IMG/VR virus record: IMGVR_UViG_3300045594_000287
Location: 42,939-106,938 of that record
Strand: one strand, 5' to 3'
Length of the DNA stretch: 64,000 bases
DNA from: a virus
Taxonomy: Duplodnaviria > Caudoviricetes
Position 1 is the stretch's first letter; the number at the start of each line of letters is the position of its first letter. Positions 38,815 to 62,206 of this stretch are shown here, in pieces. The position numbers were made by a program, and so were the translations under genes. The notes under the pieces are model-generated. The model saw nothing but the letters and a program-made list of their open reading frames with translations, was not told the DNA's origin and did no database searches.

Positions 38815-38826
38815 GGAGGCTAATAA

Positions 38827-42293: not shown

Positions 42294-42298
42294 ATATA

Positions 42299-42324
42299 GA
42301 CTCCGACCTCGGTCGGAGTTTTTT
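42299..42324 (+). terminator. Rho-independent terminator
   Basis: ACTCCGAC-CTCG-GTCGGAGT plus T tract. Confidence 0.85.
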
Positions 42325-42416: not shown

Positions 42417-42938
42417 ATGGAAGGATTATCAGGCATCGTCTCCTCGCTGGCAACAGTTACTCCTGGTTACGGTATCTTTCTATCCATCATGGCCCTAATT
42501 GGCTTCTATGTTTGGTACTATATGTCCAAAATACTCAAGCCAAGAATTGACGAACGAGAGAAGAGAGAAACCGCAGCGGTGAAAAACCAAACTCATTCAT
42601 TGAATCTACTACAGAAAACAGTAGATGCAAATGAAGGAGTAACCAAACAACTCATGTCAACGATGAACCGACTTGATCTCACCTTAGAAAAAGTCTCTGA
42701 AAAACTCAGCAGCGTAGACGAGCGTACCTCCAATGATTCAAAGATGCTTAGTGATATTAATAACAACATGCCGTCAAAGGATAATGTTAATAAACTTCAC
42801 GAGCGAATCAATGCAATCACTGATAACATGGCAGACAAAAATGATGTCAAGCGCATCATGGATGCTGTCAATGAGGTCAGCAACGGAGTATCCAAAGCAA
42901 ATGAAGCTTTGGTCGAGCTCCGAGCAAAGCAATCCTAA
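42417..42938 (+). CDS. Membrane protein with an N-terminal TM helix and coiled coil (holin-like, BhlA/XhlA-type architecture)
   Basis: Start reassigned to ATG 42417 after AAAGGAGGA; TM segment YGIFLSIMALIGFYVWYYM. Confidence 0.5.
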   Translation: MEGLSGIVSSLATVTPGYGIFLSIMALIGFYVWYYMSKILKPRIDEREKRETAAVKNQTHSLNLLQKTVDANEGVTKQLMSTMNRLDLTLEKVSEKLSSVDERTSNDSKMLSDINNNMPSKDNVNKLHERINAITDNMADKNDVKRIMDAVNEVSNGVSKANEALVELRAKQS

Positions 42939-43001
42939 GCTGGTATCCCTCGCATCAATAGCAGTGCGAGGGATATTGGTATCTATGGAGGTTTTTACAC
43001 C

Positions 43002-43017
43002 TCTACAATGCGTAATA
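43002..43017 (+). promoter_or_regulatory. Putative late promoter of the fibre + radical-SAM operon
   Basis: TCTACA-ATGC-GTAATA matches the motif at 10881 and 62775; preceded by a hairpin at 42944-42975. Confidence 0.5.
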
Positions 43018-43054
43018 TAGTCAATAGATAATGTCGAAAAGAAAGGTGAAATAT

Positions 43055-44422
43055 ATGGCAAATGATACTTATAAAGAAGCTACTTACCAGGAAAAGATCG
43101 CCACTGGTAATGGCGTCAGGAAAATATCCGAAAAAGTCATCCAGGATGGAAGGGCCCTTGTCATCACAGACGAAGACCTTAATAAATACTCCTGGAGCGA
43201 TCTGCCAGATGGTACGATCAAAGTAAATCCGAATACGGGATTGATGGACGTCAAACTGAAAGGGCAGACGAGTTGGGTTCCAGCAGGGATCAAAAATGAC
43301 GGAACGATCTGCATTGCAAAAGACAGCATGATCATACAGGAAGATTTCGTGATCGAGAAAGTACCAGCATATGCGAATGGTCGTTACGGTACAACATCCA
43401 GCGAAACGTTCACATATTCCATGCCGACGATAGACACACAAAGTAATCCGTCGACTACCCCGAACTCATTCACTGGGAAAGTTACAGCTGACGGAAAAGG
43501 CTTGATCTTCCGTCTTACGCAGGGCACGTATATGAATCTACGTAATCACCTGGAAGTGATCATTGATGATGTACTGTATCGTTCTTTCCGCACTGGCGGA
43601 GTAGATGAGCGCAACGAACAGGAATTCATCATCTATGACCAGCTGGAAGCTGGGCAAAAGATCACTGCTAAATACATCCGCATCATTCGGATCGGTAATC
43701 CGTATCCACGAGTATTCATGAATACCAATACTCCGGATTCTTCAGAAGCCGGTGACATGTGGATTGATCCTGCAGGCGACATGGAACAGAACATCTACAA
43801 GAACTATCTTGATAACATCGAGATAGATCCAAAAGTAAAAACCTTCATGGATGGCATCACATCCTCTTACCAGGCTGCGGTAACTGACTCGATGAAGGGC
43901 TATACCTCCAACAACCCGGACCTCAAGAAGCGTATCGATGATTTCTGCGCTACCCTGGATAAGGATTATCCAAATACGGGTATGGGGAAAGACATGGCCA
44001 AAGCTCTCCTCAGTTATTGCTCTGGGATTATTCCTTGGGAATTCACCACACATCCAAGTACGATTGCCGGCTATGGCATCCAGGATAACTTATCGTATAA
44101 TGGCCACGTTCATAAGAAGCAGGATATCATAGATTTCCCGAGTTCGCTTCCTGCCAGTGGCGGTAACTCGAATACAGTAGGCGGATATGCACCGGGGCGC
44201 AATGCGAACCAGCTGCTTGTAATCGATTCAAACGGAAAAATCCCAACTGCAGTACTCCCAGATAGTGAGCAGAAGGATTCCGATTTCCTGACAACAGGAC
44301 CGAACCCGCCGGCTGTCCCTGTGAACGACAGGAGTGTATGGATCTGTACTAAGGCAGGAGAGCAATGTATAAAGCTTTATACGAACAATAACTGGATCAT
44401 ACTTCACGCGGCATGGTCATAA
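43055..44422 (+). CDS. Tail-fibre-related protein (455 aa)
   Basis: Start after GAAAGGTG; fibre motifs HPSTIAGYGIQD and GHVHKKQDIIDFP. Confidence 0.6.
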   Translation: MANDTYKEATYQEKIATGNGVRKISEKVIQDGRALVITDEDLNKYSWSDLPDGTIKVNPNTGLMDVKLKGQTSWVPAGIKNDGTICIAKDSMIIQEDFVIEKVPAYANGRYGTTSSETFTYSMPTIDTQSNPSTTPNSFTGKVTADGKGLIFRLTQGTYMNLRNHLEVIIDDVLYRSFRTGGVDERNEQEFIIYDQLEAGQKITAKYIRIIRIGNPYPRVFMNTNTPDSSEAGDMWIDPAGDMEQNIYKNYLDNIEIDPKVKTFMDGITSSYQAAVTDSMKGYTSNNPDLKKRIDDFCATLDKDYPNTGMGKDMAKALLSYCSGIIPWEFTTHPSTIAGYGIQDNLSYNGHVHKKQDIIDFPSSLPASGGNSNTVGGYAPGRNANQLLVIDSNGKIPTAVLPDSEQKDSDFLTTGPNPPAVPVNDRSVWICTKAGEQCIKLYTNNNWIILHAAWS

Positions 44423-44436
44423 GGAGGAACTAAACG

Positions 44437-45750
44437 ATGGCAGCATTGAATGCAAATAAAATCCAGTCTAGAAACCTTGACCCGGATTTTAAGAATAAGC
44501 TCGCTATAAGAGGCGAGATATCGATGGACGACTTATCAGAAGATGTGCGAGCAACCATATCGAATGGTAAGGGTGATGTAAACTATACAGCCTTGAGCAA
44601 TACTGTTGAAGGACTGAAAAACACCAAGGCTGATAAAACGACCTTGGACAATTACTTCAACAAGACTACGGACAAACTCTCGAAAGAGCAGTTGGATGAC
44701 AAGCTGCAGAGTACGATATCGAACACTGAGAACATCCTTACGGTAGCTCAGGCTACGTACAGATTGAAGTCAGAACCGATCACGGAAAAGGATATCTCCA
44801 ATGATTTCCTCACGAGACTGACCGGCGTAGAAAATAAGGCAGCAGCTGCTGCGACCCAGGCCCAGGCTTCAGCCGACACAGTCAATACTCTTACGACACA
44901 GGTAAACGAAGTGAAGGAGACTGCGAAGTCGATGACTGACGCTATCAGTCAGATAAGCCTGCTCAATACGACGGTATCATCATTGGATAAGAACGTCGGC
45001 ACGAACCGTTCGTCATGTGAGAACCTGGACAACAAGATCGTCCAGACGAACAGGGATATGGATGCCCTTCGTCTGAAGATAGATGCCAATACGTATTCCA
45101 GCACAAATAAAATCCCTCTTGATTCAATAGATGATAAAGTGAAATCTGGCCTTGACGATATCAAGACCACGCAGGATTCCATCAAGGTGCTGCAAGGGGT
45201 CCAGGGGAAGCTTTCTGAAGGAAAGTCCGGCCAGATTGTTTCGATCTGCGACGGCAGCGGCACGATGAAGGCATCGGATCTTATCACGCCATGTACCATT
45301 GTCCATACGGATAATGATTTTGAGAATGGCAAGAAAGCCGGTAAACCAATCATCTTCTACCCTGAAGCCGGTAAGCTTTCATTCTCGACAGATGGTAAGG
45401 CAAAGATGAGATCTCCTCTGAATACGATTGCGGACAATTCAGATGCCACTCTTTTGCAGGATGAGACAACACCAAAGGACAGCAATGGCAAAGCCGTTTA
45501 TTCTTCTTTCATCAAAGCAAAAGACATGTGGATCTTCCAGAACCATTTCTTCCATGATGCAGAAACGGGCGAGATCCTTTTCAACAATCCGTATAATGAC
45601 AACTTAACCACGTTCATGCCGGGCGGGATCGTAAGTAACCTGAACACGATCAGCGGGAATACTACGAAAGTGCAGTCTACGATTACAGATATGCAAGCAG
45701 CCATAGCGAACCTGCAGACCAGGATCGCAGCACTGGAAACCAATAAATAA
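44437..45750 (+). CDS. Coiled-coil tail-fibre-related protein (437 aa)
   Basis: SD AAGGAGG; long heptad segments; C-terminal LQTRIAALE. Confidence 0.5.
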   Translation: MAALNANKIQSRNLDPDFKNKLAIRGEISMDDLSEDVRATISNGKGDVNYTALSNTVEGLKNTKADKTTLDNYFNKTTDKLSKEQLDDKLQSTISNTENILTVAQATYRLKSEPITEKDISNDFLTRLTGVENKAAAAATQAQASADTVNTLTTQVNEVKETAKSMTDAISQISLLNTTVSSLDKNVGTNRSSCENLDNKIVQTNRDMDALRLKIDANTYSSTNKIPLDSIDDKVKSGLDDIKTTQDSIKVLQGVQGKLSEGKSGQIVSICDGSGTMKASDLITPCTIVHTDNDFENGKKAGKPIIFYPEAGKLSFSTDGKAKMRSPLNTIADNSDATLLQDETTPKDSNGKAVYSSFIKAKDMWIFQNHFFHDAETGEILFNNPYNDNLTTFMPGGIVSNLNTISGNTTKVQSTITDMQAAIANLQTRIAALETNK

Positions 45751-45762
45751 AGGAGTGATACC

Positions 45763-46707
45763 ATGGCTATATTAAAATGGAAGAATGCGAAAGACTGGAT
45801 CTCATTTTATGTTGATTCTATCGCACTCCGTTTGAGAAAAGATAAGAACCTCAGTGACGTGAACGATGTCGTGGCAGCCAGGAACAACCTGGAGCTCAGT
45901 GGAGTGAATAACCACACCCATTATCACGACGACCATTATATGCCGCTGATAAATCGTGAAGAGAAATCACGTACCACGGAACGAGACTCTTCCTCGTTCT
46001 GCATCACAGGAGATGTCGAAGCTCCTTTTGTCGGCTTCACTAATGATATGAAAGTGATGTTGCAGGCGAAGAATGTCATCGCTACTACCACAATGATCAA
46101 TGATGGAAGCAATATTCCAGTTAAACTTACCGGTGCAAGTAATACAGGAATACAACAAATCCGTACTACGGGGGTGACTGCTGATGCGGCAGGAAACCTC
46201 ACTTCAACCAGCGTGCAGTCAGGTTCTATAAGCGGAACGGTAGCCAATTTCAGCACAGTAAATGCTCAAAAAGTATACAATGCCATTTGGAATGACTATG
46301 CTGAATTCTTCCCCCGCGGTGGAGAAACCAACCCTGGCGATCTGATTATGCTTGACATTAAGAGCAAGAAAGAGCAATATATAAGAGCAACGAAAGATGC
46401 GCAGCTCATTGTCGGAGTCCATAGTGATGAATTCGCCATGCTCATCGGCGGAGAGAAGCCGGCTGCTGGCGAAGATTATTTCAAGACGAACATCGAGAAG
46501 TATATCCCCGTAGCCTTGGCTGGCCGCGTCCACGTCAACTTCACTGGCGCGTCTGCAAAGGGCGGGAAAGTAGTTCCGAGTGATATCCCGGGCTATGCAC
46601 GTCTTTATAATCCAGAGAAAGATACTCTGGATAGAGTAATTGGATATCTCGTTGAATCCGATGACTCCACGGGGGAAAGAAAGCTTAAGATCAAAATCGG
46701 GAGATAA
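45763..46707 (+). CDS. Tail fibre/spike protein with a C-terminal intramolecular chaperone autocleavage domain (Peptidase G2-like)
   Basis: LRKDKNLSDV..ARNNL and HYHDDHY; VYNAIWNDYAEFF..PGD..VGV.SD..PVALAGRV.V. Confidence 0.7.
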   Translation: MAILKWKNAKDWISFYVDSIALRLRKDKNLSDVNDVVAARNNLELSGVNNHTHYHDDHYMPLINREEKSRTTERDSSSFCITGDVEAPFVGFTNDMKVMLQAKNVIATTTMINDGSNIPVKLTGASNTGIQQIRTTGVTADAAGNLTSTSVQSGSISGTVANFSTVNAQKVYNAIWNDYAEFFPRGGETNPGDLIMLDIKSKKEQYIRATKDAQLIVGVHSDEFAMLIGGEKPAAGEDYFKTNIEKYIPVALAGRVHVNFTGASAKGGKVVPSDIPGYARLYNPEKDTLDRVIGYLVESDDSTGERKLKIKIGR

Positions 46708-46709
46708 TT

Positions 46710-47690
46710 ATGGATCTGATCATTAAACCTACGAAGGCTTGCAACTTCGCTTGCACCTTCTGCTCTTCTAATAAAATATCGAAGGCATTAACACTCGACC
46801 TGGAAAAGGTATTTCCGATCCTTCTCGAGAATGATGTCCAGACGATCATAGTAAACGGCGGCGATCCACTGATGGTCCCGCCGGCTTATTATGAGAGGCT
46901 TATCAATTTCCTGGACGAACATGACATGAAGACTACTATATCTTTCACGTCGAATCTCTGGGATTTCTTTTTGCATCCAGACAAATGGGAAAAACTATTC
47001 AAGGATGAACGAATGGGAGTCTGCACTTCGTTCCAATATGGAGGAGAACGAAGGATAGCTGATGGCCAAGAATTCACGGAAGAACTGTTCCGTAAAGTGT
47101 TCTCATTATTCGAAGACAGGATTGGATACAAGCTCTCATTCATCTCTGTCATCACCAGGAACAACGAAGAACGAGTACTCGATACCGTAAGGCTTGCGAA
47201 AGAACTCGGAACGGAATGCAAGATAAACCCAGCTTTCAAATCCGGACGTAGCGAGGAGTTCTACCCCCTATATAAGGCGTATGGAAGATACCTCGATATC
47301 ATCAAAGCTGGTCTGGCAGAATATGAGTTCAACAGCAAGAACCTCAAGCAGCTGTTTGGGTCAAGCAACGTGTGCTGCCCATACAACAGGAATTGCTACA
47401 AGACCATCCGTTGCATAAGTCCAGACGGACTGATCCATAGCTGCGGGGCCTTCAATGACGACCATTACATGAATGCCGCCCAGGGGAAGAAGACATACTG
47501 CCTAGGCCAATATGACGAGAAAGAGCTGGCAAGGGATTTCAAGATGCTGAAGCCGGCATGCCTTTCCTGCGACATGTTCCGGTTCTGCAACTCATGCTAC
47601 AAGCAGATCGCTGACATCACGAGCAGCGGCACGACGGAAGAACACTGCACAGGCATGAAAGCATTAGAGGGGAGACTGAAAAGCATATGA
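46710..47690 (+). CDS. Radical SAM/SPASM-type protein 1
   Basis: CNFACTFC, GGDPL and a C-terminal Cys cluster (CCP..C..C..C..CLSC..CNSC..C). Confidence 0.9.
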   Translation: MDLIIKPTKACNFACTFCSSNKISKALTLDLEKVFPILLENDVQTIIVNGGDPLMVPPAYYERLINFLDEHDMKTTISFTSNLWDFFLHPDKWEKLFKDERMGVCTSFQYGGERRIADGQEFTEELFRKVFSLFEDRIGYKLSFISVITRNNEERVLDTVRLAKELGTECKINPAFKSGRSEEFYPLYKAYGRYLDIIKAGLAEYEFNSKNLKQLFGSSNVCCPYNRNCYKTIRCISPDGLIHSCGAFNDDHYMNAAQGKKTYCLGQYDEKELARDFKMLKPACLSCDMFRFCNSCYKQIADITSSGTTEEHCTGMKALEGRLKSI

Positions 47691-48514
47691 CACTGTACAT
47701 AAAAGTCACGGAAAGCTGCAACTTGCATTGCCCCTTCTGCTACATCAAGCAGAAGCCTGGTACGATAGATATGGATTCGATCGACAGGGCAATGCAAGAG
47801 CTGCAGCCAAATCGAATCATCTTCCATGGAGGAGAGCCGCTCCTATATCCAAAGATCATCCTGGAGACGATCAAGCAGTATCCGGATATAGAATACTCGG
47901 TCACGTCGAACCTCATGGTTCCATTGACCGATCAGGTACTCGAAGTGATCAAGAGATGCAAGATAGCTACAAGCTATTCCGTGGACAGGTTCACCGAAGA
48001 GCAATTCGAAGATTTCAAGGCGGCCGTGAAGATGGTAAGTTCTTACCAGCCGATAACCCTGCTTGTCACGTTATCCGAAGCCCAGCTGCAGCAGCCTCCA
48101 AAAATCCTGTCTGATACAATTAAGGAACTGGAGATCAGTAATATAACATTTGAAAGGCTTTTTACAGAACGCAAAAGCAAAGAGCTGTACGAACAAACGG
48201 ACGAATATCTGCTGGAAGCATTCAAGCATGTCGATACCGAGAAGAACAACATGTTGCATTGGATGGAAGACGCGATAAGGAGCAACGGCACCGTATTCAA
48301 CCACGATTGCGATGTGCAGACATTGAATCCAGATGGTTCTCTTTGCGGATGCCCGAACCTCTATCGAACGAGAATCCACGATCAGCGGAAAAGGGAATGC
48401 TTGTATTGCGATATATATCAATATTGCAAAGAAGATTGCCCGAGCTTCGGTGGCATATGCTGTTTTCCTAAGAAGACCTTCCAATCAATATTGAAAGCGA
48501 GCGTGAATAAATAA
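47687..48514 (+). CDS. Radical SAM/SPASM-type protein 2
   Basis: CNLHCPFC, FHGGEPL and GCP..CLYC..C..DCP..C. Confidence 0.9.
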   Translation: MTLYIKVTESCNLHCPFCYIKQKPGTIDMDSIDRAMQELQPNRIIFHGGEPLLYPKIILETIKQYPDIEYSVTSNLMVPLTDQVLEVIKRCKIATSYSVDRFTEEQFEDFKAAVKMVSSYQPITLLVTLSEAQLQQPPKILSDTIKELEISNITFERLFTERKSKELYEQTDEYLLEAFKHVDTEKNNMLHWMEDAIRSNGTVFNHDCDVQTLNPDGSLCGCPNLYRTRIHDQRKRECLYCDIYQYCKEDCPSFGGICCFPKKTFQSILKASVNK

Positions 48515-49065
48515 TGAATACAGGCGACACTATAACCCCTGAGGGTTTAGCATATCATATCAATGATAACTTGAAAGAGAAGATTCAGGACTATGTGCAT
48601 TGGTGGCTCAGCGCGCCACCGAACTTCGATGACAACTGGGATAAGATCTTGCAGAATACAGACAACCTGGCTGCGATAACCAGTGACATGATCGGGAAGA
48701 AAGGCGAATGGCTCAATGCAGCTTCATTCTATAAGAATATCCAGGCTACCGTTAACTCCTGGTCAACTGTCCGCCCATTCAGCGTGATCGGATATAAAGG
48801 CAACAACACGAATGGTGGAACGCCTACCTATACGAAAGTGTATAGTGAGATGCGCTATGCCAACATAAAGGTAGCACATGAAGACATACTCGGCCGGGCC
48901 GGGCAGCCTTTCACAGCCGGCAGCATCGCTTCTGCAGAAACCATGAACCAGCTGATAAACAACATCTTCAGGCAGTGGAAAGATCTTCCTATCTATACCT
49001 ATGAATCAAAGAACTGTCACGGCAACTGCCATGATAACTGCCATGGATCTGGCGGCTGGCGTTGA
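48514..49065 (+). CDS. Putative radical-SAM substrate/precursor protein with a C-terminal (NCHx)3 tail
   Basis: 183 aa ending SKNCHGNCHDNCHGSGGWR; all its Cys residues are in this tail; TAATG-coupled to rSAM 2. Confidence 0.65.
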   Translation: MNTGDTITPEGLAYHINDNLKEKIQDYVHWWLSAPPNFDDNWDKILQNTDNLAAITSDMIGKKGEWLNAASFYKNIQATVNSWSTVRPFSVIGYKGNNTNGGTPTYTKVYSEMRYANIKVAHEDILGRAGQPFTAGSIASAETMNQLINNIFRQWKDLPIYTYESKNCHGNCHDNCHGSGGWR

Positions 49066-49084
49066 TAATACCGGAGGGGAAACA

Positions 49085-49786
49085 ATGACAAAAGATTCCG
49101 TACTCACTGCTCTTCCATTCACCGAGGAGCAGCTCGATAAATACTTAGATGACATGGACAAGCATAGCTTCTATATTGAATTCAGTGATTGCAAACTGAA
49201 AGGCAACAAGCTGCTGAACTACATATACAACTCGGGAATGGAATGTGATCTGCATCTGACCGATTTTACTTCGAACGATCTCGAGGGGTTCGTGAAAGAC
49301 TATATCTGTACAGACAAGATCGTCAACATCCCTGCTGTGAATGATATCTGGTGTGATATCCTCCTGTATCGAATAGAGAAAGAGATATTCGATACGAATA
49401 AAGAAGAGAAAGAGTTTATAGAAAGATTTTATGAAGATCACGGTGACCTGATTGATGAGTTGTTTGATATATTGTTTAGCTTAAAAGCTCATCTTATTGC
49501 TGCCATCGTCAACGATGATGATGGAATGATTGAGGGGAAAGAATCACGCAGCATGAATGAGGTTGGCCTTAACTTCGTCACGCTCAGGAACTCTGGAGCA
49601 TTCTGGAACGTCCTTACCAGGATAGACTCCCTTGGGCTTCCCGTGTACAACTACAAGGATTTCCAAGAATTCAGCTACGATGGAAGAAAGATACGCCACA
49701 ATTTCCTTGATGAATTCGGACCATTCTCCATCTTAAGCATATACATCAAAGACTCTATAGAAAGGGCTGGAAGTGCCGATGAATAA
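49085..49786 (+). CDS. Acidic hypothetical protein of the rSAM cluster (233 aa)
   Basis: Start reassigned to ATG 49085 after GGAGGGG; no recognisable catalytic motif. Confidence 0.6.
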   Translation: MTKDSVLTALPFTEEQLDKYLDDMDKHSFYIEFSDCKLKGNKLLNYIYNSGMECDLHLTDFTSNDLEGFVKDYICTDKIVNIPAVNDIWCDILLYRIEKEIFDTNKEEKEFIERFYEDHGDLIDELFDILFSLKAHLIAAIVNDDDGMIEGKESRSMNEVGLNFVTLRNSGAFWNVLTRIDSLGLPVYNYKDFQEFSYDGRKIRHNFLDEFGPFSILSIYIKDSIERAGSADE

Positions 49787-51023
49787 AACTATTCCTATCA
49801 GACAGTACAAGATCGATTACGAGACCTTATCCAAAGAGTTCCCCGAGATCATCCCTGCAGACACAGAAGCTTCTATCGATGGCTTCATATCGAAAGGGAA
49901 ACTTTACCTGAAATCCTCTGCGGATAAAAGTAACCCGCTTGTTATTGTCTCAAACGATCATACATTTGACCATAAGTTCCTGGATAAGGAAGATACCATA
50001 ACATTGAAGCTGGCTGATCCTGCCAAGTCATTCTCCACTATGCCAGAATATGGTTTCACGATAGATGACAATATCAGCGTGCATCAGTTCACAGTAGATA
50101 AAGATATGGCTGATAAACTTATCAGCAATAATGGTTTCCATTATTGGGGGATGGACAAGCAGCTGCATGTCAATGCCCACACATACAAACCAGATACGGT
50201 CATCGAATATGCGAATCGTATCCTCGAGAAAGGATATTCTTATCCGATCGTCTGTTATGTCGATACGACCATCCAGATAGAGAAGAATGATTATATCCCA
50301 TACCTGCATGAGCTGCTGGAAATCGGAAACGTCCCTTTTCGGATAATGACCTACAAGGACATCAGGTATCTGATGCATGTGACTCCAGAATTGTATACGA
50401 TAATATACGGGATTCCCAGTAATAAACGCTATCAGAAAGAAGATTCCGTTGACATAAGCAGCTTCCTCTTGACCAATTACAGCGATAAGCGCGACGCAAT
50501 CAAGAACTACCAGATAAAGGTAAGCAAGCCTGAGGACTCGGAATATGCATATATCGACAACCCGTTTGATCAATGCTTCTCTTACTATTTCATTTTTGAT
50601 TCCGACCATGCTTTCCTCAACGATCGGCTCATAACCAACATCATCAACAGGAATGACCTCGATTATGTATCCTGGGATGGAGATGAGTCTGGAGACATGG
50701 CAGCCGGCATGCATCTGAAGAATGCATTATATGGACGCACTCCGGTCAAGCAGATCCATCATGCCCATCCAGGTGAGGCAAAGGACACGGATGCTTTCGA
50801 GGAATATTGCGTGGAACATCATATCGACCTTGGTCTGTTTGATATGTTGTCATTTGGATACTCGAACGATAAGATCGAATTTACGAAATCTATCCTGGAT
50901 AAATTCAAGGCGGATCTCATCGTTATCGAGAATGACCAGTCAGCACTCTTGGGAGTAGAGATGCTGCAAGACCTTCTCGACAAGGACGACCTTTGTATCA
51001 AATATCTGAAACTTAAGAAGTAG
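49779..51023 (+). CDS. Hypothetical protein of the rSAM cluster (414 aa)
   Basis: Overlapping ATG after GGAAGTG; no recognisable family. Confidence 0.6.
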   Translation: MNKTIPIRQYKIDYETLSKEFPEIIPADTEASIDGFISKGKLYLKSSADKSNPLVIVSNDHTFDHKFLDKEDTITLKLADPAKSFSTMPEYGFTIDDNISVHQFTVDKDMADKLISNNGFHYWGMDKQLHVNAHTYKPDTVIEYANRILEKGYSYPIVCYVDTTIQIEKNDYIPYLHELLEIGNVPFRIMTYKDIRYLMHVTPELYTIIYGIPSNKRYQKEDSVDISSFLLTNYSDKRDAIKNYQIKVSKPEDSEYAYIDNPFDQCFSYYFIFDSDHAFLNDRLITNIINRNDLDYVSWDGDESGDMAAGMHLKNALYGRTPVKQIHHAHPGEAKDTDAFEEYCVEHHIDLGLFDMLSFGYSNDKIEFTKSILDKFKADLIVIENDQSALLGVEMLQDLLDKDDLCIKYLKLKK

Positions 51024-51034
51024 GGGGAACGAGC

Positions 51035-51985
51035 ATGATTGTATTCATTAAGCCGGTAGAGGCATGTAACCTCAAGTGCCTGCATTGCTACAATTGTGCC
51101 AACAGCAACTCCATCGACTTCAAAGCTCTTGGCTCTTTCCTTTCCTGTGTGAATAGGGAACAGCCGAAGAGCTTTTTTGTCTTACATGGCGGAGAGCCGC
51201 TGCTGGCAGACACGGATAAGACATTGGACTTGGTCAAGGGTTTCCCTGATAATCCATGGAGGATAACCACCAACCTTACTATGCCGCTCACAAGGGGCAG
51301 GATGGAGATCATCTCCTTGATGGATGAGGTCAGGACGTCTTTCGATATCGGTATCCGCTTCGGAACACTCCACAATCTCATGATGTGGAAGCACAACATG
51401 CAGGAACTGGTAGCAAATGGCATAAACGTCTACGTGAATATATGCTTCACGAAACAGCTGTTAAAAAAAGATCCAAGGAAACTGATGGACATGATGCACC
51501 ACCTTCATATAAAGACATTGAGCTTCGAACGGATCTGTAAGGCCGGCCGAGCGGCTGAAGGCGTGGACTTCATTCCATCATATGAAGATGTCGATGAATG
51601 GTTATGCAAGCTGTACCAGGTAGCAAAAGATTTTAAGGACGTGAAAGTAAGAGAGTTCGAAAACATTGCCTTTGGCATCATGAAAGAGTATAATTACTAC
51701 AGAGGCAAGGAGTGCTGCATCGCCACGCTTACCGTGAATGCCGATGGCACTATTGGCCGCTGCCCAAACGATGCGCAGGTATCAGTTTATGGAAACATGA
51801 AAGAACCGGAAAAGGCCATTGCGGCCAAGATGTGTGCCGGATGTCAAAGGGTAAAGACGGAATGCCTTTCATGTAATTCATTCGAAGATTGCCAAGGGGG
51901 ATGCCCCGCAGCAGAATGGCAGGGGAGCTCCTGCCCATACCCGAAAAAGCTATCCCAATTGATCAAGGAGGATCTCGGCCGATGA
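51035..51985 (+). CDS. Radical SAM/SPASM-type protein 3
   Basis: CNLKCLHC, LHGGEPLL and CC..GRCP..CLSC..CQGGCP..CP. Confidence 0.9.
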   Translation: MIVFIKPVEACNLKCLHCYNCANSNSIDFKALGSFLSCVNREQPKSFFVLHGGEPLLADTDKTLDLVKGFPDNPWRITTNLTMPLTRGRMEIISLMDEVRTSFDIGIRFGTLHNLMMWKHNMQELVANGINVYVNICFTKQLLKKDPRKLMDMMHHLHIKTLSFERICKAGRAAEGVDFIPSYEDVDEWLCKLYQVAKDFKDVKVREFENIAFGIMKEYNYYRGKECCIATLTVNADGTIGRCPNDAQVSVYGNMKEPEKAIAAKMCAGCQRVKTECLSCNSFEDCQGGCPAAEWQGSSCPYPKKLSQLIKEDLGR

Positions 51986-52839
51986 ACATACTACCTAGTT
52001 ACGCTTGCAACTTTCATTGCCCATTCTGTGCGATTCACCAGCAGGATTGCGGGCAGCTGCTCAATCTTGACTATGCCAAGCAGCAGCTGTCTTCGATTCC
52101 CGGCATAAGGCAGATAGACATCCTCGGAGGGGAACCATCGCTATTACCAGATGAATACTTATCAGAGCTGATTGACATATGCACATCAAGACTTAATGGC
52201 AAGCTGCCAGGCATGTATACCAATCTCAGTCGTGTATCTCCATTGATCGACAGGGTCAAGCTCACTGTAAGTTTCGATCCTGGGATGAGAGAAGCAAGGA
52301 ACAGCGTTATCCAGAACATGCTCATGTTGGATAATGAATTCGATATCAACACGATTGTCAGTTCAAAGCTCGTAGCTCTGGGTGCCGGCCATATAGAGAA
52401 GATGCTATCGAGATTCCGTATGGCAAAGCGAATATGCTTGAGCTCTTTCACGCATTTTCCAGGCATGCCAGATTATACCCCAGCTCCTGAGGATATGCTG
52501 AAATTCATGAAAGATATCCTGTCATTGGATGAGCCACATCGTATCCACTTCTCTCCTATATCATCTATAAGAGAAGGATCACGAAAAAGCTATGCAGCAG
52601 AGGAATCTGCAGAGATGCTGCCAAGTGGCAAGTATCGATATGCACTTCGAGACGTCACGAGCGCAAAAGAGTTCGAGACATTTGACGCCGTCAAGAAATA
52701 CCGATACAACAATGAATCTTATCCTGGCGAATGCAATAGCTGCAGATACAGAGGACAATGCCTGAATAAATACCGGACAGAAGCTGGATGCTATTGGGAC
52801 AAGAAGATCATGGAGACAATAGAGGAGAGGCTATCATGA
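51982..52839 (+). CDS. Radical SAM protein 4
   Basis: Start reassigned to ATG 51982 (ATGA overlap, SD AAGGAGG); SYACNFHCPFC, ILGGEPS and C-terminal CNSC..C..C. Confidence 0.85.
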   Translation: MNILPSYACNFHCPFCAIHQQDCGQLLNLDYAKQQLSSIPGIRQIDILGGEPSLLPDEYLSELIDICTSRLNGKLPGMYTNLSRVSPLIDRVKLTVSFDPGMREARNSVIQNMLMLDNEFDINTIVSSKLVALGAGHIEKMLSRFRMAKRICLSSFTHFPGMPDYTPAPEDMLKFMKDILSLDEPHRIHFSPISSIREGSRKSYAAEESAEMLPSGKYRYALRDVTSAKEFETFDAVKKYRYNNESYPGECNSCRYRGQCLNKYRTEAGCYWDKKIMETIEERLS

Positions 52840-53717
52840 ACATATACGCAAGCTATGCCTGCAATGCAAATTGTGCATTCTGCTCACTGCATGACCGCCC
52901 GGGTAAACGGATTGCCCTGGATTGGCTAGAGCAGCAACTGGAAAAGCACGAAGACCTATGCGAGGATATCAACATCCTGGGCGGGGAACCATCCGTACTG
53001 CCACTTGATTATCAGGAGCGCCTGGTCGACATCTGCACGAAGGCGGCAGGAGAGAAGCCGTATTACATCACGAACCTGCTCAACGTGAGCCCAGTCCTCG
53101 GGAAGACCCGGCCGATCGTCAGCTATGACTTCGGCCTGCGGGAGGACAACGTCCAGACGATGAACAACATCCTGCAGTTGGACATGCCGTATTCCCTGTC
53201 TACGATCCTCACCGACGAGCTGATAAGCCGTGGGAGCAAGAAGCTGCTCCGCTTCGTCGACATGCAGCCGAACTGCGAGCGGATCGATCTCGTGATGTAT
53301 CGCAGCGGCACCACGGAAAAAGACTTTACTCCTGATCACGAGGAGCTCATGAAATTCGTATCTGAAGTCATGGATCATCCGAAGATAAATCTTACGCCAT
53401 ACTCGGCTATGAAGGGGTGGACAGACAACTCGTTCGCAAACGTCGCTGGCCGCTTCGGCTTTCTGCCGGACAATAAGTATGGAGTCCGCATCGATTATGG
53501 TCAACAAGGGTACACTCCATTCGACTCTTACGATGACGCTTTAATTTATTACATCAAGCGTATCAATGAGATCAATCGGACGAAACTATGCGGCAGCTGT
53601 CCATACAAGGGGCGATGCTGGTGCGTGGGCGGATATGAGAATGAGGTATGTCACGGTGATCGTGAAATGATGGAACTATTCGAGAGGAGATTGAAAGATG
53701 TTCATCCACATGTTTGA
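52836..53717 (+). CDS. Radical SAM protein 5 (paralogue of 4)
   Basis: Start ATG 52836 (ATGA overlap); SYACNANCAFC, ILGGEPS and C-terminal CGSC..CWC..C. Confidence 0.85.
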   Translation: MNIYASYACNANCAFCSLHDRPGKRIALDWLEQQLEKHEDLCEDINILGGEPSVLPLDYQERLVDICTKAAGEKPYYITNLLNVSPVLGKTRPIVSYDFGLREDNVQTMNNILQLDMPYSLSTILTDELISRGSKKLLRFVDMQPNCERIDLVMYRSGTTEKDFTPDHEELMKFVSEVMDHPKINLTPYSAMKGWTDNSFANVAGRFGFLPDNKYGVRIDYGQQGYTPFDSYDDALIYYIKRINEINRTKLCGSCPYKGRCWCVGGYENEVCHGDREMMELFERRLKDVHPHV

Positions 53718-54450
53718 TAAGATCTATGCAGTCAACAGTACATGCGAACCGCAGGACAGCGTTGATATCCGGAAACGATTTATCGACTACCACGGAATGA
53801 AATGCGAGCATCCATTCCTTGAGACATTGTACGATGAGATCATGGACAACCGGCTCCCAGGTGGCATAGAGGACCGCAGCGTGAACGTGCTCATCGTTCC
53901 TGACGAGCAGTACAACGAGCTGATGCAGGATTACTGCATCTACCTCGGTCTCGACTATAAAGCTTACAGCTTGATCAAATGGCACAGCAGTTTCTGTATT
54001 TGTTATCTCGACAACGTCGCAGAGACAATAAGCCAAGGATTCCCATATCCGGTCATCAAGAAAGAGAACTTCATCGTCGGCAAGAAGAAAATCCGACGCG
54101 GCTATGAGCATTTCCCCGTAGAGTTTGCTGTCAACAGCAATGAGAAGTGGGCAAATGACAAGCGGGACAACTGCAGGATACATGAGGTATTCGAAGTCAT
54201 AAAGGATTATCAGTATAAATGCTACCGAGAAGGCATACCATGCCCGACATGTCTCAAGAACTTCAGCGCGAGTCATCAAAGCGCAAAAGCACTGAAAGAG
54301 CCGGCGGTGATGGATGCCTGCTTATCTGCTCTTAACGATCTCGACATAAGCATCGAGCATAACAGAGGTTACAACAGGTTCCATGGGTATAAGTACAACT
54401 TCCCATTGGAAAAATATCTTAAGAAGGAAGGATATCGCATCGATGGATAA
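53698..54450 (+). CDS. Hypothetical protein of the rSAM cluster (250 aa)
   Basis: SD GAGGAG; overlaps both neighbours; contains CPTC. Confidence 0.55.
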   Translation: MFIHMFDKIYAVNSTCEPQDSVDIRKRFIDYHGMKCEHPFLETLYDEIMDNRLPGGIEDRSVNVLIVPDEQYNELMQDYCIYLGLDYKAYSLIKWHSSFCICYLDNVAETISQGFPYPVIKKENFIVGKKKIRRGYEHFPVEFAVNSNEKWANDKRDNCRIHEVFEVIKDYQYKCYREGIPCPTCLKNFSASHQSAKALKEPAVMDACLSALNDLDISIEHNRGYNRFHGYKYNFPLEKYLKKEGYRIDG

Positions 54451-55756
54451 TTGGAAAGAATATCTAAAGTTCAACTTGAAAGCACAAGACACACCGAGAC
54501 TGTTCGACGCGACGAAACTGGATGGCAGGCAGTTCAACGTGAACCATAAGAATGTAGCCTGGACCGCTGCCATGTATTTCCACGCGGACCCAGATGTATG
54601 GGAACTGCCAGCTAAGAACTACTTCGTCCGGATATGCTTGGCCTATTACATCAGTCGGAGATACCGGGAATCATTCTATGACCTGCTGAACGACAAAGAT
54701 CTGCTGCCATATGACGACCGCTATTCCGGCACATACGACGAGGACAAGGAGACCTACGACAAGATACTGGATATCACGTATCCAGGGTGCTTCGAGACAT
54801 TCCTTGGCTATCAACATACGATCGACGTATTCGGTTATCTATACGATCCGATCATCTCAGATCACTCGCTCACCATCGGATACAATCTGACCGGGCAGGA
54901 ATTCTTCGACACGATCTGCTTCAAAAAGAGATACATCGAGGAGTTCTTCTTCTCTCTTACCCATACGATGCCGAAACAGAAACTGGACACGGAAGATGTC
55001 CTGGCTCAATTGAGAGACTGTGATACCTATGGCATCCCGGGCAACCTGCTTCTCAATACAGAAGCATCAGAAGGAGCGTGGCAGCAGCTGATACAGTCTG
55101 CTATGGATGCCGTACCGCTGCAAGCAGTCACCGTGCTCACTATCGATTACGCAGAGAAGGTGAAGAAGGCCTTCCCAGATCTACAGGTACACATCTCTAC
55201 GCATGGTGCAACGAAGCTGAAAGCCGAAGACCTTGGCTCAGGATATGTAGACGTCCTGAATGTAGCTGAGCCATACTATTACAGTGAGCAGCAGCAGGGT
55301 CTTATCCGCAGATGCAAGGAGCTCGGGATCCGCGTGAAATACATTGTCAACCGTGGATGTGTGAACAATAAGCATTACCTTATGAGCGAGCTGGTCGGCC
55401 GGCCCATCATGTGCTGTCAGAATTACCAATGCAAGCAGCTGCTAAAAGAAGTGCCATGGTTGGACCTCGTTCGCACGAACCTGTACAAGGAGATGCTCCC
55501 ATATTACGATTTCAAGTACCTGAAGATATCAACCAGGGAATTGTCCAACGAAAAGGTAAGGCAGGAACTTGAATATTGGACAAGCACGGTGCCTACCAAA
55601 AAAGTTGGGCAAATAGAGATCACCCCGGACAACTACAACACTTTCATCGTATGGTGCAAGACTAAGGCCTCATGCAAAGGTAATTGTTCAAGATGTGATA
55701 AGTGCAAGAAGATTTACGAGAGGTTGATGAAACAATGTCAGTTAAAGAACGAGTAG
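54443..55756 (+). CDS. Unknown N-terminal domain fused to a U32-family (Fe-S, UbiU/TrhP/RlhA-like) domain
   Basis: GIPGNLLLN, FPDLQVHIST, VKYIVNRGC..H..CC..C, LKISTRE and C-terminal CKGNCSRCDKC; start reassigned to ATG 54443. Confidence 0.65.
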   Translation: MDNWKEYLKFNLKAQDTPRLFDATKLDGRQFNVNHKNVAWTAAMYFHADPDVWELPAKNYFVRICLAYYISRRYRESFYDLLNDKDLLPYDDRYSGTYDEDKETYDKILDITYPGCFETFLGYQHTIDVFGYLYDPIISDHSLTIGYNLTGQEFFDTICFKKRYIEEFFFSLTHTMPKQKLDTEDVLAQLRDCDTYGIPGNLLLNTEASEGAWQQLIQSAMDAVPLQAVTVLTIDYAEKVKKAFPDLQVHISTHGATKLKAEDLGSGYVDVLNVAEPYYYSEQQQGLIRRCKELGIRVKYIVNRGCVNNKHYLMSELVGRPIMCCQNYQCKQLLKEVPWLDLVRTNLYKEMLPYYDFKYLKISTRELSNEKVRQELEYWTSTVPTKKVGQIEITPDNYNTFIVWCKTKASCKGNCSRCDKCKKIYERLMKQCQLKNE

Positions 55757-56601
55757 ACCTTATCTCCAACAATAAAGGTCTATCTATAAACACTCCGATA
55801 ACGACAGCTAAGATAGAGGTAAGCGGTATCTGCACGCTTCAATGCAAGTTCTGTTACAACAAAGAGATGAAGAAGAACAATGAGCGGCAGAAGCTGATGA
55901 GTATGGATGACTTCCATAAAGCACTGGACTTTATCAGCCGGATTAAGACATTGAAAGAAGTCGGCCTGTTCTATATGGGGGAGTCTGGTATTCATCCTCA
56001 GCTTGCAGAGATGTATAAAGAACTGAAAGATCGCGGGTACTTCACCTACCTCACAACGAATGCAACATACATAGACACTATCCTGCAGGCTATTCCATAT
56101 ATCGACAGTCTGAAGGTGTCGTGGAATTATACTGGCCACAAAGACTTTGAAGAAAAGACAGGCTGCCCAGAGTCTACGTATCACAAAATCCGAAAGAATA
56201 TCACATACCTCTATCAGGAATGCCATCTGCAGGGCAAGCAACTCGCGATCTCAACAGTACTCGATCGTGATAAAGAGGACTATTTTAATTCGCTGATCAT
56301 GCTTCCGCGTGATGAGCACTATTGGATTCCGCTGCAGACCCAGGGTGGCCTAAACGAGTTCGGTGAAGACGGAGTGGTCGGCGAAGATGAACACAAAGTT
56401 TCTCCTTTCCCGTGCTGGTCACTGTTCAAGGGAATCTATATTGATGCCGATCTTATGATAAGGGCCTGCTGCTACGGCCATACTGAAAAGCACATCATAG
56501 GAAGATGTGAAAAAGGCTTCTATAAAACTCAATATAAGATGAAACAGCTTGAAGGAAAAATCCCTGAAATGTGCAAAGAATGCCTGCGCAGCCAAGCCTA
56601 A
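55735..56601 (+). CDS. Radical SAM protein 6 with a C-terminal SPASM/twitch-like domain
   Basis: CTLQCKFC, YMGES, LTTNA and PCWSLF..ACC..CKEC; start after GAGGTTG. Confidence 0.85.
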   Translation: MSVKERVDLISNNKGLSINTPITTAKIEVSGICTLQCKFCYNKEMKKNNERQKLMSMDDFHKALDFISRIKTLKEVGLFYMGESGIHPQLAEMYKELKDRGYFTYLTTNATYIDTILQAIPYIDSLKVSWNYTGHKDFEEKTGCPESTYHKIRKNITYLYQECHLQGKQLAISTVLDRDKEDYFNSLIMLPRDEHYWIPLQTQGGLNEFGEDGVVGEDEHKVSPFPCWSLFKGIYIDADLMIRACCYGHTEKHIIGRCEKGFYKTQYKMKQLEGKIPEMCKECLRSQA

Positions 56602-56669: not shown

Positions 56670-59600
56670 GTGTTATTTTTGTCCTTATATGACAGAAAGT
56701 TCACTGTTGGCCACCAGTCAGAGTTGCTATACAATGAAGAGCTGCATAAGATGTATGAATCCATGCGGCACTTGCTTGAAATACCGACGGATAAGAAATT
56801 TCCAGAGGCTAAACTCGACGGGTCACTCTGGCTTGATAAAAGTAAGAATGAACTAAATACATATGATAAGACTGCCCAGGAGTGGAAGAACGTCTTCTCT
56901 AACAAATTCCAGATTGTAGATCAGATAATGACTCCTTATGAGCCTACCAACCCTGTACCGGGGCAGCTTTGGTTATGCAGCGGAGTGCTGATGTATTATG
57001 ATGGTACTCAATGGCAGCCAGTGAAAGCAGTCCAGGAATCAGATGCCCAGTTCAACCTGTCCATCTTCAGCAACTTCACGATGGCCAGTCCCCTTTGGAC
57101 GATAGGGAACACAGTCCTTGAGTCGAAAGATTCCAAGCTGGCATATCTCAACGAATATCAGGAAGCCGTACGTAAAGTACAGCAGGGCAAGATAGACGCA
57201 GAGAATGACGCAGCGGAGATCGGACATGAGAAGCAATGGGATGTTGGCGACGTATGCGGAGACGATGTGAAATATCCGTATCCAACAAGCCTTCTCGAGG
57301 GATACAGCCAGATGCTGATCCCGAATGCAGACATGGACAGGATCTTCGTGGATGACAAGCTTGACTTCTCATTCAGGAAACAATCCTCGATATGCATCGA
57401 ATATCCTAAGAAGCTGCTGGTAGACCATACCCCATCGTTGATCCATATCAATCCTGGCAGGCTGAACCATATCAGCAAGCGTCTCTTCAAGGTCGACCCA
57501 ATTAACCCGAAGATCAATATCGACACGAAGGCCACGGAATTCTATGGATTCTGTGACAATCACCGGCAGGGACATTACCTGCGCCCGGAAGACAATAAAG
57601 GGAAAGGGGACTACAGGACTCTCTCCGATGGTATATATCTTTCGAAATATGCTTGTGACAACTATGGATACGTGCTGGCTATTGCTTATGACTTCACTTG
57701 GTATCGGAATTCCGGAGACCTCGCTTTCATAGACAACCAGGGGGACACCCCAAGCTACTACATCAAGGACTACACCGGTACGATGAGCGTATTCGTAGAA
57801 GGGTTGAACCTCGACGATAATCAGTATACCGAGGATAACACTTCCCGCGTGCTCACGGTCAAGTCGAATGGCAATGAGGTCACCGGCGCGATCCACGCTC
57901 CTAAACAGGAGTCAGGATATATCCGCGAGATATCCTTGAATAACCAAGGTGTTATCCATCTCGTGAAGTCATTCACCAATCCATTGGTATTCGTGAACGG
58001 AGAGCTGCTGAATCCTATTGCCAACGACTATATCAAAGATGGCCAATGGATCTATGTACCTAATGCCAGCATAAACATGATGTGGAATGTCATCGAATCC
58101 CATGACGAGAAGAACAGCTATGACATGCTCGCAGCTGCCGGGAAAGTCACGGATAAGGCCGGCACGAATGCGATCATCAAATATGACCCCAAGACGATCT
58201 CTCCTGAAGAAGATATCGCCCTGTTCATCAATGGACTTCTCATCAAGAAGGTTGATGTCACCCGCGATATCGTAAACAACTACATCACGGTATCCAACCT
58301 ACAGGTTGGACAGGATTATATCATCCTTAAGGATAAGTACCATTACTTCTATTCAGAAGAAGACATGACTCCAGCTATCCCTATTGGGGGGACGGTAAGC
58401 CAGTGTATCGTCTATTACAATGGGCTGTACCTCGGAGACAGTACTCAGGTATTCACGACGGCATCACAAGCTGATGCTGCTACCACCGCCCGCCATAATG
58501 AGGTTCGCTACTTCCTCAGCAGCGAAGTATCTGGCACTGGTGTGAAGTACTACGTCAATGGCGTATCGGAAGCGACCATGAGGAACTCCATCGAAAGCTA
58601 TATGGACGGTAACCGGAAAGGGCAGAGCCCGGCTATGCCGGATGCATCGAAAATCGCTGGGCAGTTCATGATCTACGATGAGCCGAATGGAGTATGGAAA
58701 CTCTTGCCGGCCGCAGATATCATGCAATGCCTCTACATCAGCGATGGGTATGATATCACTCCCCACGCTGCTAAGCTCAACTTCACGCCGACGGAAGATG
58801 ATGATATCAAGATCTACGGATATCGGTATGCACACGACAGTGGACAGACATTGTTCATCCGGAACCTTCCGAGTGCAGATGGGGTAGATCCTAAGAATCT
58901 TGGCGATCATCTGATCTACGACCATTACAAGACGGATAAGGATGGCAAACCCGTATATTTCCCAGGCACAACGATCAAGCAACCGGATGATGGTGCGCAT
59001 CTCGTGGTGAACGGAGAAACGATATTCAATACGGAGAAGGAATATATCCCGAACATTGGAGCTCTTTCTGTATGGGTAAATGGAGTACGTCAATACGACG
59101 TGATAGAAGCAGTTGATGGCAAGTCCTTTACCTTACCAGAACCGGTATGTGGCATCGTCACATACTGCATCGAGACTCCAGAGAAAGGTAGGATGACCGT
59201 ATGCCAGCGGGAAATACTCACGGAAGACAATGCTATCGCAGATACTCCTAACGTATACCGCACGAAGCGTCCTCTCTATCCTGGCAGAGTCATCTTGTAT
59301 ATCGACGGCGTCCGTCAACCTCAGGATTCATTTACTGCCATCGATAACTATACGCTTGCGATCAATGATCCCGGTGTGATGCTGGTAGGCAGCAACAAGA
59401 ACTACCCGAATGAGACCATCATGGTAGATGGCAAGACCAAGACCCTTACCCATCACAAAGCAGACCGCCTGCTCGTAGAGGTACGCCAAGATTATTCCCG
59501 GAAAGAGCAGACGATCAAATTCGATCCAGCTGATAAATATGATATCCAGGTCAACAAATATAACCTGTCAGAAGAGATCCTTGAGAGCACAGATGAGATC

Positions 59601-61910: not shown

Positions 61911-61931
61911 TAATGAGGGGAGGAATAAGCG

Positions 61932-62123: not shown

Positions 62124-62144
62124 TCACATTCGAATAATAGAAAT

Positions 62145-62180
62145 AACCGCCGGGCATAATAGCTTCGGCGGTTGATTTTT
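62145..62180 (+). terminator. Rho-independent terminator
   Basis: AACCGCCG...CGGCGGTT stem followed by GATTTTT. Confidence 0.7.
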
Positions 62181-62200: not shown

Positions 62201-62206
62201 AACTAT

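Follow-up and report, generated by a model that had tools for sequence, protein, structure and literature searches.

The maturation of proteins by radical S-adenosylmethionine (rSAM) enzymes is known from sulfatases, from peptides that ribosomes make and that are modified after translation (RiPPs) and, very recently, from one bacterial antiphage effector; no report of rSAM maturation of a virus-particle protein was found in the literature. The sulfatase-maturating enzyme anSME (PDB 4K36-4K39) works oxygen-free on a short Cys/Ser motif of a folded protein. In the antiphage system, HXS, the matured protein is HxsA, which bears five basic His-x-Ser repeats and is acted on by two rSAMs and HxsD (PMC13128918). 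A +8 Da change in HxsA maps to SHRSS, in which the H and the two outer Ser residues are essential (PMC13128918). Jumbo phages of the RSL2/RSF1/FLC6/S13 type have genes annotated as cupin, Fe-S oxidoreductase/rSAM and 2-oxoglutarate (2OG) oxygenase (PMC8066314, PMC5468394, PMC11898562), which are homologous to those discussed below; these papers contain gene lists only, with no link to a protein with a Cys/His tail and no function proposed. The word 'radical' is absent from a 224-genome jumbo-phage review, and a literature search on phage rSAM/SPASM modification of peptides or fibres found nothing relevant. Here, we describe a phage locus with six rSAM genes at 43002-56601 of a 64,000-nucleotide stretch of DNA (the window; all coordinates are its own unless another contig is named). 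The window is the right-hand 64 kb of the 106.9-kb IMG/VR contig IMGVR_UViG_3300045594_000287 (Caudoviricetes; positions 42,939 to 106,938), which holds an estimated ~45% of the genome. Among the rSAM genes lies the gene of a small protein, CH, that ends in Cys/His repeats. We propose, with a probability of roughly 0.6, that the locus encodes an oxygen-independent rSAM system which matures the C-terminal tail of CH, a small virion protein. The enzymes and their candidate substrate are encoded as follows:

46710-47690, + strand: R1, an rSAM/SPASM enzyme (PF04055 E=1e-9, phrog_1802 E=1.5e-40).
47687-48514, + strand: R2, an rSAM/SPASM enzyme (PF04055 E=8e-12) whose gene shares one base with that of CH; a candidate for the enzyme that matures the CH tail.
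48514-49065, + strand: CH (183 aa), a globular phage-specific body that carries (C-H-x-x)3 as its C-terminal tail; proposed to be the substrate and a part of the virion.
49012-49062, + strand: the core tail of CH, NCHGNCHDNCHGSGGWR (residues 167-183), encoded by three 12-nt repeats.
51035-51985, + strand: R3, an rSAM/SPASM enzyme (phrog_1802 E=1.5e-28) and paralogue of R2.
~51982-52839, + strand: R4, an rSAM enzyme with a short Cys-rich C-terminus (PF04055 E=1.6e-7) and paralogue of R5.
~52836-53717, + strand: R5, an rSAM enzyme (PF04055 E=3.8e-5, below the cut-off; phrog_1802 E=4.5e-12) and paralogue of R4.
55702 (alternative start 55735)-56601, + strand: R6, an rSAM enzyme of a different subtype (PF04055 E=3.6e-10).

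A preliminary description, made from the sequence alone, had recognized six rSAM enzymes, most with SPASM- or twitch-like Cys tails, and both observations hold. All six carry CX3CX2C within the first ~50 residues and belong to the radical SAM superfamily (PF04055) by Pfam, PHROG or both: R1, R2, R4 and R6 lie above the Pfam cut-off, while R3 (18.9 bits) and R5 (24.4 bits) fall below it and match phrog_1802. The SPASM domain can be defined by seven cysteines in the C-terminal domain, arranged as CX9-15GX4C...CX2CX5CX3C...C. This motif is complete in R1, R2 and R3, as judged from the R2/R3 and R1 alignments; the tails of R4, R5 and R6 are shorter and Cys-rich, with partial twitch-like motifs only. 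In the R2/R3 alignment C208, G217, C222, C238, C241, C247 and C258 are invariant and C251 is present in at least 90% of sequences, and R3 itself scores 22.5 bits against the SPASM model TIGR04085 (cut-off 27). The R1-R3 families do not have the RiPP recognition element (RRE) of RiPP maturases, since there is no room for it ahead of CX3CX2C, which starts at residue 11 in the window's R1-R3 and ~11-20 residues from the aligned start in their relatives (one longer open reading frame (ORF) call, in locus L012, came up in this position check).

Comparison with characterized enzymes places this group among those that modify proteins and peptides. Among solved structures, the best match of the R2/R3 family profile is anSME over its full length (E=5e-16), and the same is true of the R1 family profile (E=9e-11); further solved matches of these profiles include ChlB (rSAM core only), CteB, SkfB and SuiB. 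The nearest NCBIfam families are DynA, DarE, PapB, CbpB, cyclophane formers, anSME and HxsC, all far below their cut-offs, and the XyeB, GrrM, FxsB, YhhB and AmcB models reach 18-35 bits against cut-offs of 310-450. Because the matches fall so far short, we regard these rSAMs as a new branch of protein- or peptide-modifying SPASM enzymes that belongs to no named family. For R6, the best NCBIfam matches are a tungsten-cofactor oxidoreductase maturase and YfkAB, both likewise far below cut-off.

The candidate substrate is harder to find by similarity. The Cys/His-tail protein reported at 48514-49065 in the preliminary description is indeed encoded there, but tblastn and a pattern search with the single window sequence found no relatives. 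Its family could be recovered by reading the ORFs beside rSAM homologues and then building a profile. The ORFs beside R3-like rSAM genes share the same type of ending, for instance RSL2 ORF068 (CHSSCHTSCHGSRGRR), DT01 PA10_00065 (CHTSCHTSCHSARGRR) and those of six IMG/VR loci. Seven such proteins were used to build a profile, and a search of 1.84 billion representative sequences with it puts the family, counted in clusters at 50% identity, at no fewer than 670 clusters at E<=1e-3, 262 of them at E<=1e-10. Among the best 150 of the 670 profile matches, exactly three C-H-x-x repeats are present in 137 (the rest have 2 to 6), an R-x-R-R ending is found in 117, and the variable body has 0.6 cysteines on average. 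The Cys and His of the repeats are invariant across the family alignment and the fourth position is Ser or Asn, so that the tail can be written (C-H-x-S/N)3; in most cases R-G-R-R comes after it. The subfamily that includes the window CH ends in GSGG(W/Y)R or GSKGW. An AlphaFold2 model computed from 121 sequences gives the body an alpha/beta fold (predicted local distance difference test (pLDDT) 88, predicted template modelling score 0.82) and a low-confidence tail, which is probably flexible. The body had no Foldseek match among solved structures at E<=1e-3 (best VIA Z 3.8), and in BFVD it matched uncharacterised phage proteins only. Fusion to a Gly_rich_2 domain of the fibre type is seen in some members of the family. 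When the genomes of 185,579 prokaryote species were scanned from a pattern seed, at least two cases were confirmed, both on contigs of metagenome-assembled genomes (MAGs) that carry the same module, and on this pattern-limited scan the family appears restricted to phages. Variation in tail and gene number was also seen, with a relative at L010 7379-7936 that has six CHxx repeats rather than three, and a pair of short CH genes in tandem (137 and 134 aa) at 5471-6288 of the MAG contig L031.

The linkage between enzyme and tail is conserved. Co-occurrence of rSAMs with CHxxCHxxCH-tailed proteins, which the preliminary description had put forward as a check, is seen for R2/R3-type rSAMs in every related locus examined, and these pairs often adjoin fibre or virion genes, a link that belonged to the same check. 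In ~18 of 21 loci an R2/R3-family rSAM gene is followed directly by the CH gene, and in the remaining loci the two are no more than ~3 kb apart:

rSAM directly upstream of CH, cultured phages: DT01, RSL2, RSF1 and Atu_ph07.
rSAM directly upstream of CH, IMG/VR loci: L010-L013 and L016.
rSAM directly upstream of CH, metagenomic contigs: L020, L023, L025, L027, L030, L035 and L036.
rSAM directly upstream of CH, others: two further contigs.
Exception L009: accessory gene E lies between the rSAM and CH.
Exception L017: a 435-aa CH-like protein with the rSAMs downstream.
Exception L031: the two tandem CH genes lie upstream of the rSAMs.

In the loci for which DNA was at hand, the CH-adjacent rSAMs score 114-164 bits against the window's R3 and 63-93 bits against R2. 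As they match both, R2 and R3 are paralogues of one CH-adjacent family, with R3 the closest counterpart of the enzyme found beside CH in other phages; this family has been duplicated in the window lineage. The pair travels with E (phrog_20767), R1, an R4/R5-type rSAM and the ~140-aa N-domain of protein H. R1 is the most conserved enzyme of the module, with 36-46% identity to its homologues in other large-phage loci, and R4 homologues come after R1 in most loci. The window shares the full order R1-R2-CH-E-(F)-R3-R4-R5-...-H-R6 with the loci closest to it, L023, L027 (on a contig of 344 kb) and GCA_016648615.1 (245 kb), and R6 is 52% identical to the product of L027 11497-12372. Across lineages the flanking structural genes vary, and the rSAM-CH adjacency outlasts extensive rearrangement. 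Atu_ph07 is T4-like and RSL2 and RSF1 have been described as phiKZ-related (PMC5468394), so the module crosses major lineages of large phages.

The phage of the window is uncultured, and evidence that CH is part of the particle comes from a homologue, gp170 of Atu_ph07. This protein ends in CHSSCHASCHNSRSRR, has a calculated mass of 31.89 kDa, and is flanked by the rSAM gp171 and the E-like gp169. Proteomics of Atu_ph07 lists gp170 among the virion proteins with 8 unique peptides and 35% coverage, together with gp176 and gp177, encoded just upstream; gp165, gp168, gp169, gp171 and gp172 are not on the list (PMC6102473 Table S5). The CH homologue is thus a particle protein and its neighbouring enzymes are not, in agreement with the virion component proposed as target in the preliminary description. 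In the same data gp170 is found in gel fragments 1-9 and is highest in fragment 1, the top gel slice, which holds proteins of 87-137 kDa, among them the 127-kDa gp20 and the 87-kDa gp197, while a dozen proteins of ~30 kDa peak in fragment 7 or 8 (PMC6102473 Table S5). This migration is a weak hint of a high-mass form stable in sodium dodecyl sulfate (SDS), weak because many proteins in the table smear across slices.

Relatives from aerobic hosts point to a second version of the pathway. In relatives from Ralstonia, Burkholderia and Pseudomonas, and in several metagenomic loci, a cupin gene directly precedes the CH-adjacent rSAM, and these cupin-bearing relatives have at least two 2OG-Fe(II) oxygenases, some with a B12-rSAM or IscA-type Fe-S carriers in addition. 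The cupin and oxygenase genes of the Ralstonia/Burkholderia-type relatives are present in published annotations (PMC8066314, PMC11898562). By comparison, no cupin or 2OG oxygenase (no PF13759 match) was found on the window's contig, nor any cupin or 2OG oxygenase in the Pfam listings of L023, L027 and GCA_016648615.1. This lineage contrast in oxygenases is consistent with the oxygen independence attributed to the pathway in the preliminary description. At 3089-3772 of a contig from JGI 3300045366, two IscA-type Fe-S assembly genes lie directly upstream of a cupin-oxygenase-rSAM-CH module, which suggests that a phage may supply cluster-assembly help to its own rSAMs.

Taken as a maturation system, the module could work in the following way. 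R2, or its paralogue R3 (the CH-adjacent rSAM in other phages), would thread the CH tail into its own barrel and abstract a hydrogen there, from the side chain of a Cys, a His or a Ser/Asn. Further steps, or the holding of the substrate, would fall to R1, R4/R5, R6, H and E. Where the host is aerobic, the cupin and the 2OG-Fe(II) dioxygenases of the relatives would share this work, and in the window lineage extra rSAMs and H would take their place. The matured tail would then have its role in the particle; the simplest such role is that of a staple, covalent or metal-mediated, to other proteins of the virion. Candidate chemistries include thioether links from Cys, a cyclophane or HXS-type bridge in the His-x-Ser/Asn units, and oxidation of Cys to formylglycine. 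We rejected the last of these as the committed chemistry, as the window tail does not have the Arg of the sulfatase motif, and it is kept as a candidate only.

Several points weigh against this proposal. Modification of the CH tail is a prediction, and the gel pattern of gp170 may reflect aggregation or smearing, as many proteins span several slices (PMC6102473). The absence of oxygenases holds for a contig of 107 kb, an estimated ~45% of the genome. The window subfamily does not have the R-x-R-R end and finishes in GSGGWR, and a mechanism dependent on arginine therefore does not transfer to it. Six enzymes are many for a tail of 16 residues, so some may act elsewhere. Lastly, strict adjacency of rSAM and CH is broken in three loci (L009, L017 and L031), although always within ~3 kb. 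A wider proposal, which we hold to be tentative and on the whole doubtful, is that several phage lineages use rSAMs to hypermodify the (Cys-His-x-Ser)3 tail of a dedicated virion protein, either to staple this protein covalently into high-mass assemblies stable in SDS or to serve a DNA-entry role like that of the HxS-repeat effector, through interchangeable aerobic (cupin/2OG) and anaerobic (all-rSAM plus Fe-S TIM-barrel) forms.

The excess of enzymes can also be read in another way, in which the rSAMs act on fibre or other structural proteins, or on a small molecule, and the CH tail is a bystander that binds metal (at a trimer axis, as with the His motifs in T4 fibres) or serves as an enzyme scaffold. 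In favour of this reading, Cys-His repeats bind metals well, structural genes surround the module, and H and E have no assigned role. We nevertheless consider this explanation unlikely: the rSAM-CH adjacency persists through rearrangement across unrelated lineages while the flanking structural genes change, and the presence of CH but not the enzymes in the Atu_ph07 particle disfavours a scaffold or electron-carrier role in particular.

A further option is a true RiPP pathway, with the CH body as a long leader, from which the modified tail of 16 residues would be cleaved to become a small free product, for instance a metallophore, toxin or signal. The tail does resemble a core peptide, being C-terminal and invariant behind a variable upstream part, and the tandem precursor-like copies in L031, the spread of 2 to 6 repeats, the several tailoring enzymes nearby (including B12-rSAM and 2OG oxygenases in relatives) and the RiPP maturases among the nearest NCBIfam models all fit this picture. 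What makes it improbable is that the enzymes have no RRE, that no protease or exporter is conserved in the module, and that the supposed leader is a well-folded domain of 165 aa which occurs in virions (in the homologue) and is sometimes fused to fibre-type domains. Of the two outcomes left side by side in the preliminary description, a released RiPP-like product is thus less likely than a virion component. Finally, hypermodification of phage DNA or synthesis of a nucleotide or cofactor (compare thymidine hypermodification and queuosine), which could be argued from the dihydrofolate reductase genes inside the cluster in RSL2 and RSF1, the part taken by rSAMs in phage thymidine hypermodification (PMC8989533) and weak MoaA, viperin and NrdG matches, is very improbable, as the preliminary description had held, since those matches cover the shared N-terminal rSAM core only and lie far below family cut-offs, the best full-length match is the protein-modifying anSME, the window cluster has no kinase, glycosylase, transferase or dihydrofolate reductase gene, and the last is absent from most loci.

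The remaining genes of the cluster and its flanks were named A-C and E-I, in order:

43031-44422, + strand: A (463 aa), presumed structural; similar at its C-terminus to a 160-aa ORF that neighbours the CH-like gene of L017.
44437-45750, + strand: B (437 aa), a coiled-coil protein (weak DUF7310 coiled-coil match).
45763-46707, + strand: C (314 aa), conserved in the window lineage, where it directly precedes the module.
49085-49786, + strand: E (~233 aa, ATG at 49085), phrog_20767 (E=4e-20), after CH in most loci.
49773-51023, + strand: F (416 aa), fast-evolving and lineage-specific, with no family match.
53698-54450, + strand: G (250 aa), an orphan with no matches.
54443 (alternative start 54383)-55756, + strand: H (437 aa from the called start), an N-domain of phrog_20737 and a C-terminal TIM barrel.
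56670-59834, + strand: I (1054 aa), probably structural, downstream in the same unit as the cluster.

Pfam, NCBIfam and PHROG searches with A, B, C, F, G, I and a further large protein, J, returned nothing informative. A, B and C had been taken for tail-fibre genes, a claim that we withdraw: none of them has a fibre-family match in Pfam or PHROG, and the fibre genes that PHROG does support (34621-41157) lie beyond a terminator at 42298-42321. C is 45% identical to the product of L027 723-1697, and L025 has two C-like genes ahead of its rSAM-CH pair. In the position of B, L027 and GCA_016648615.1 have proteins with weak coiled-coil Pfam matches, in which BLASTP found no homologue of B. At its N-terminus, I shows weak similarity to gp176, a virion protein of Atu_ph07 (E=5e-4), and in GCA_016648615.1 proteins of 1043 and 691 aa come after the cluster.

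Three genes had been called orphans, which stands for the lineage-specific F and G but not for E. F has homologues in L023 and L027, plus one distant database match only. E belongs to the conserved family phrog_20767, with homologues in DT01, RSL2, RSF1, Atu_ph07 (gp169) and metagenomic loci; it is a conserved non-virion accessory protein, as gp169 is absent from the Atu_ph07 virion list. A search of the ESM Atlas with E gave no usable match.

H had been described as U32-like, and this assignment is not supported. PF01136 (peptidase U32 and UbiU-UbiV-type Fe-S hydroxylases) does not match H even at E<=10, and the U32 signature, which we take to be E-x-F-x2-G-[SA]-[LIVM]-C-x4-G-x-C-x-[LIVM]-S, is not present in it. 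In the model of H (pLDDT 93) the fold is that of a generic TIM barrel, for which the highest Z values, 12-15, are to pyruvate kinase, aldolases and similar enzymes; comparison with PDB structures returned generic TIM barrels only, and sequence searches of the PDB and NCBIfam had no match. In the ESM Atlas, U32, rSAM and methyltransferase clusters tie at TM ~0.53. The N-domain is a stand-alone protein in relatives from aerobic hosts, and in the window lineage it is fused to the Cys-bearing barrel, whose conserved cysteines (C306, C330 and a C-terminal CX3CX2CX2C) make an Fe-S or zinc site plausible.

The setting of the cluster can be summarized with a few features upstream of it:

34621-38814, + strand: tail-fibre gene (1397 aa), PHROG-supported.
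38827-41157, + strand: tail-fibre gene, PHROG-supported.
42298-42321, + strand: strong intrinsic terminator (10-bp stem with 5 GC pairs, then a T-run).
42418-42938: small protein that opens the cluster unit; its N-terminus has a hydrophobic segment, and it forms a long coiled coil (weak DUF948 match).

Among the products of the contig are a Dda-like helicase, a tail sheath of 1007 aa, the large terminase, proteins of the baseplate, tail fibres and giant proteins, and only its + strand is used from ~13.8 kb onward. From this gene content and uniform strand, the window can be identified as the structural block of a large myovirus. A nucleotide search of the region against cultured phages gave no match. 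We rejected a phiKZ-type affiliation of the phage, as none of the ten long ORFs scanned from the upstream 40 kb matches an RNA polymerase family. The strong terminator at 42298-42321 closes the upstream fibre-gene unit and therefore places the cluster in a separate transcription unit, which also holds the small coiled-coil protein, A-C, I and J. Within this unit the tight coupling noted in the preliminary description is evident, with junctions of -55 to +19 nt from C to R6, 14 nt between A and B and 12 nt between B and C. No convincing + strand terminator interrupts 43000-56600, where three weak intragenic candidates were the only ones seen, again as described. The single late promoter proposed ahead of the genes is another matter: the sequence TTTACA-16-TATAGT is present at 42994-43021, but similar sigma-70-like matches number 31 against 34.3 expected in shuffled sequence. 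As this does not exceed chance, the promoter claim was dropped; late expression of the cluster would be in keeping with its co-orientation within the structural block.

Other parts of the window also deserve mention. The 1397-aa fibre protein has a CBM_5_12 module at residues 1034-1068 (E=1e-10), which suggests that it may bind a chitin-like or other glycan receptor. The baseplate/fibre block includes giant + strand ORFs at 2125-10776 (2883 aa), 10925-19192 (2755 aa) and 23171-28168 (1665 aa). Between the first two, at 10777-10924 and after a terminator, lie repeated palindromic units TTTAGTCAACTGTCGACTAAAT, then AAATTTAGTCGGTAGTCGACTAAATTT, whose arrangement resembles a paired operator, or a site bound by protein, in front of the gene for the 2755-aa product. 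At 61911-62765, 850 nt without a long ORF contain at least two hairpin-plus-T-run terminators; a tRNA scan of the window and an Rfam search of 61800-62900 had no match. In the related contig L027, the large terminase gene at 18136-20583 is interrupted by an intein with a LAGLIDADG endonuclease (Pfam matches).

What the locus adds is an unannotated, phage-restricted candidate substrate family of at least 670 clusters with a fixed enzyme partner, and with it a testable function for the rSAM, cupin and 2OG genes in jumbo-phage gene lists. Cultured carriers include DT01 (Pseudomonas), RSL2 and RSF1 (Ralstonia), FLC6 and S13 (Burkholderia) and Atu_ph07 (Agrobacterium). The system may reveal new Cys/His chemistry, as well as a pathway re-tooled for hosts that live without oxygen.

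Among known systems, the rSAM-SPASM maturases of RiPPs (PapB and CteB for sacti- and ranthipeptides; the triceptide cyclophane formers XyeB/GrrM/FxsB/YhhB/ChlB; DarE/DynA) are of the same enzyme subfamily as the window rSAMs. These systems share with the CH module a short repeated C-terminal core with Cys and aromatic-x-x units, which in CH are His-x-Ser/Asn, as well as several tailoring enzymes per operon. They differ in that the CH module has no RRE, protease or exporter, and its "leader" is a folded virion protein domain. Closer in the nature of the substrate is HXS, where, as proposed for the phage module, rSAMs mature a repeat-bearing protein and not a short peptide. The spacing of SHRSS equals that of the phage C-H-x-S-C, with Cys for Ser, and phage tails usually have a basic end. 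HxsC (TIGR03977) is the top but weak NCBIfam match of R4 and R5 at ~20, at most 24, bits (cut-off 267.9), and HxsB is absent among the NCBIfam matches listed for the rSAMs. HXS is bacterial, periplasmic and defensive, its repeats have a period of 3 without Cys versus a period of 4 with Cys in the CH tail, and the CH body has no peptidoglycan-binding domain; the likeness is one of resemblance, not membership. Among enzymes of solved structure, anSME is nearest to both the R2/R3 and the R1 family when the full length is compared. The rSAMs reach 31-36 bits against its equivalog model TIGR03942, whose cut-off is 349. CH is no sulfatase, its motif occurs three times with an invariant His, several additional rSAMs are present in the module, and the window tail reads CHGSG without an Arg at +4. 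Even so, the common tail of the CH family, C-H-[GS]-S-R, loosely recalls the sulfatase motif C-x-P/A-x-R, and, like R1 and R2/R3, anSME combines a seven-Cys SPASM domain, which in anSME holds two auxiliary clusters, with the lack of an RRE.

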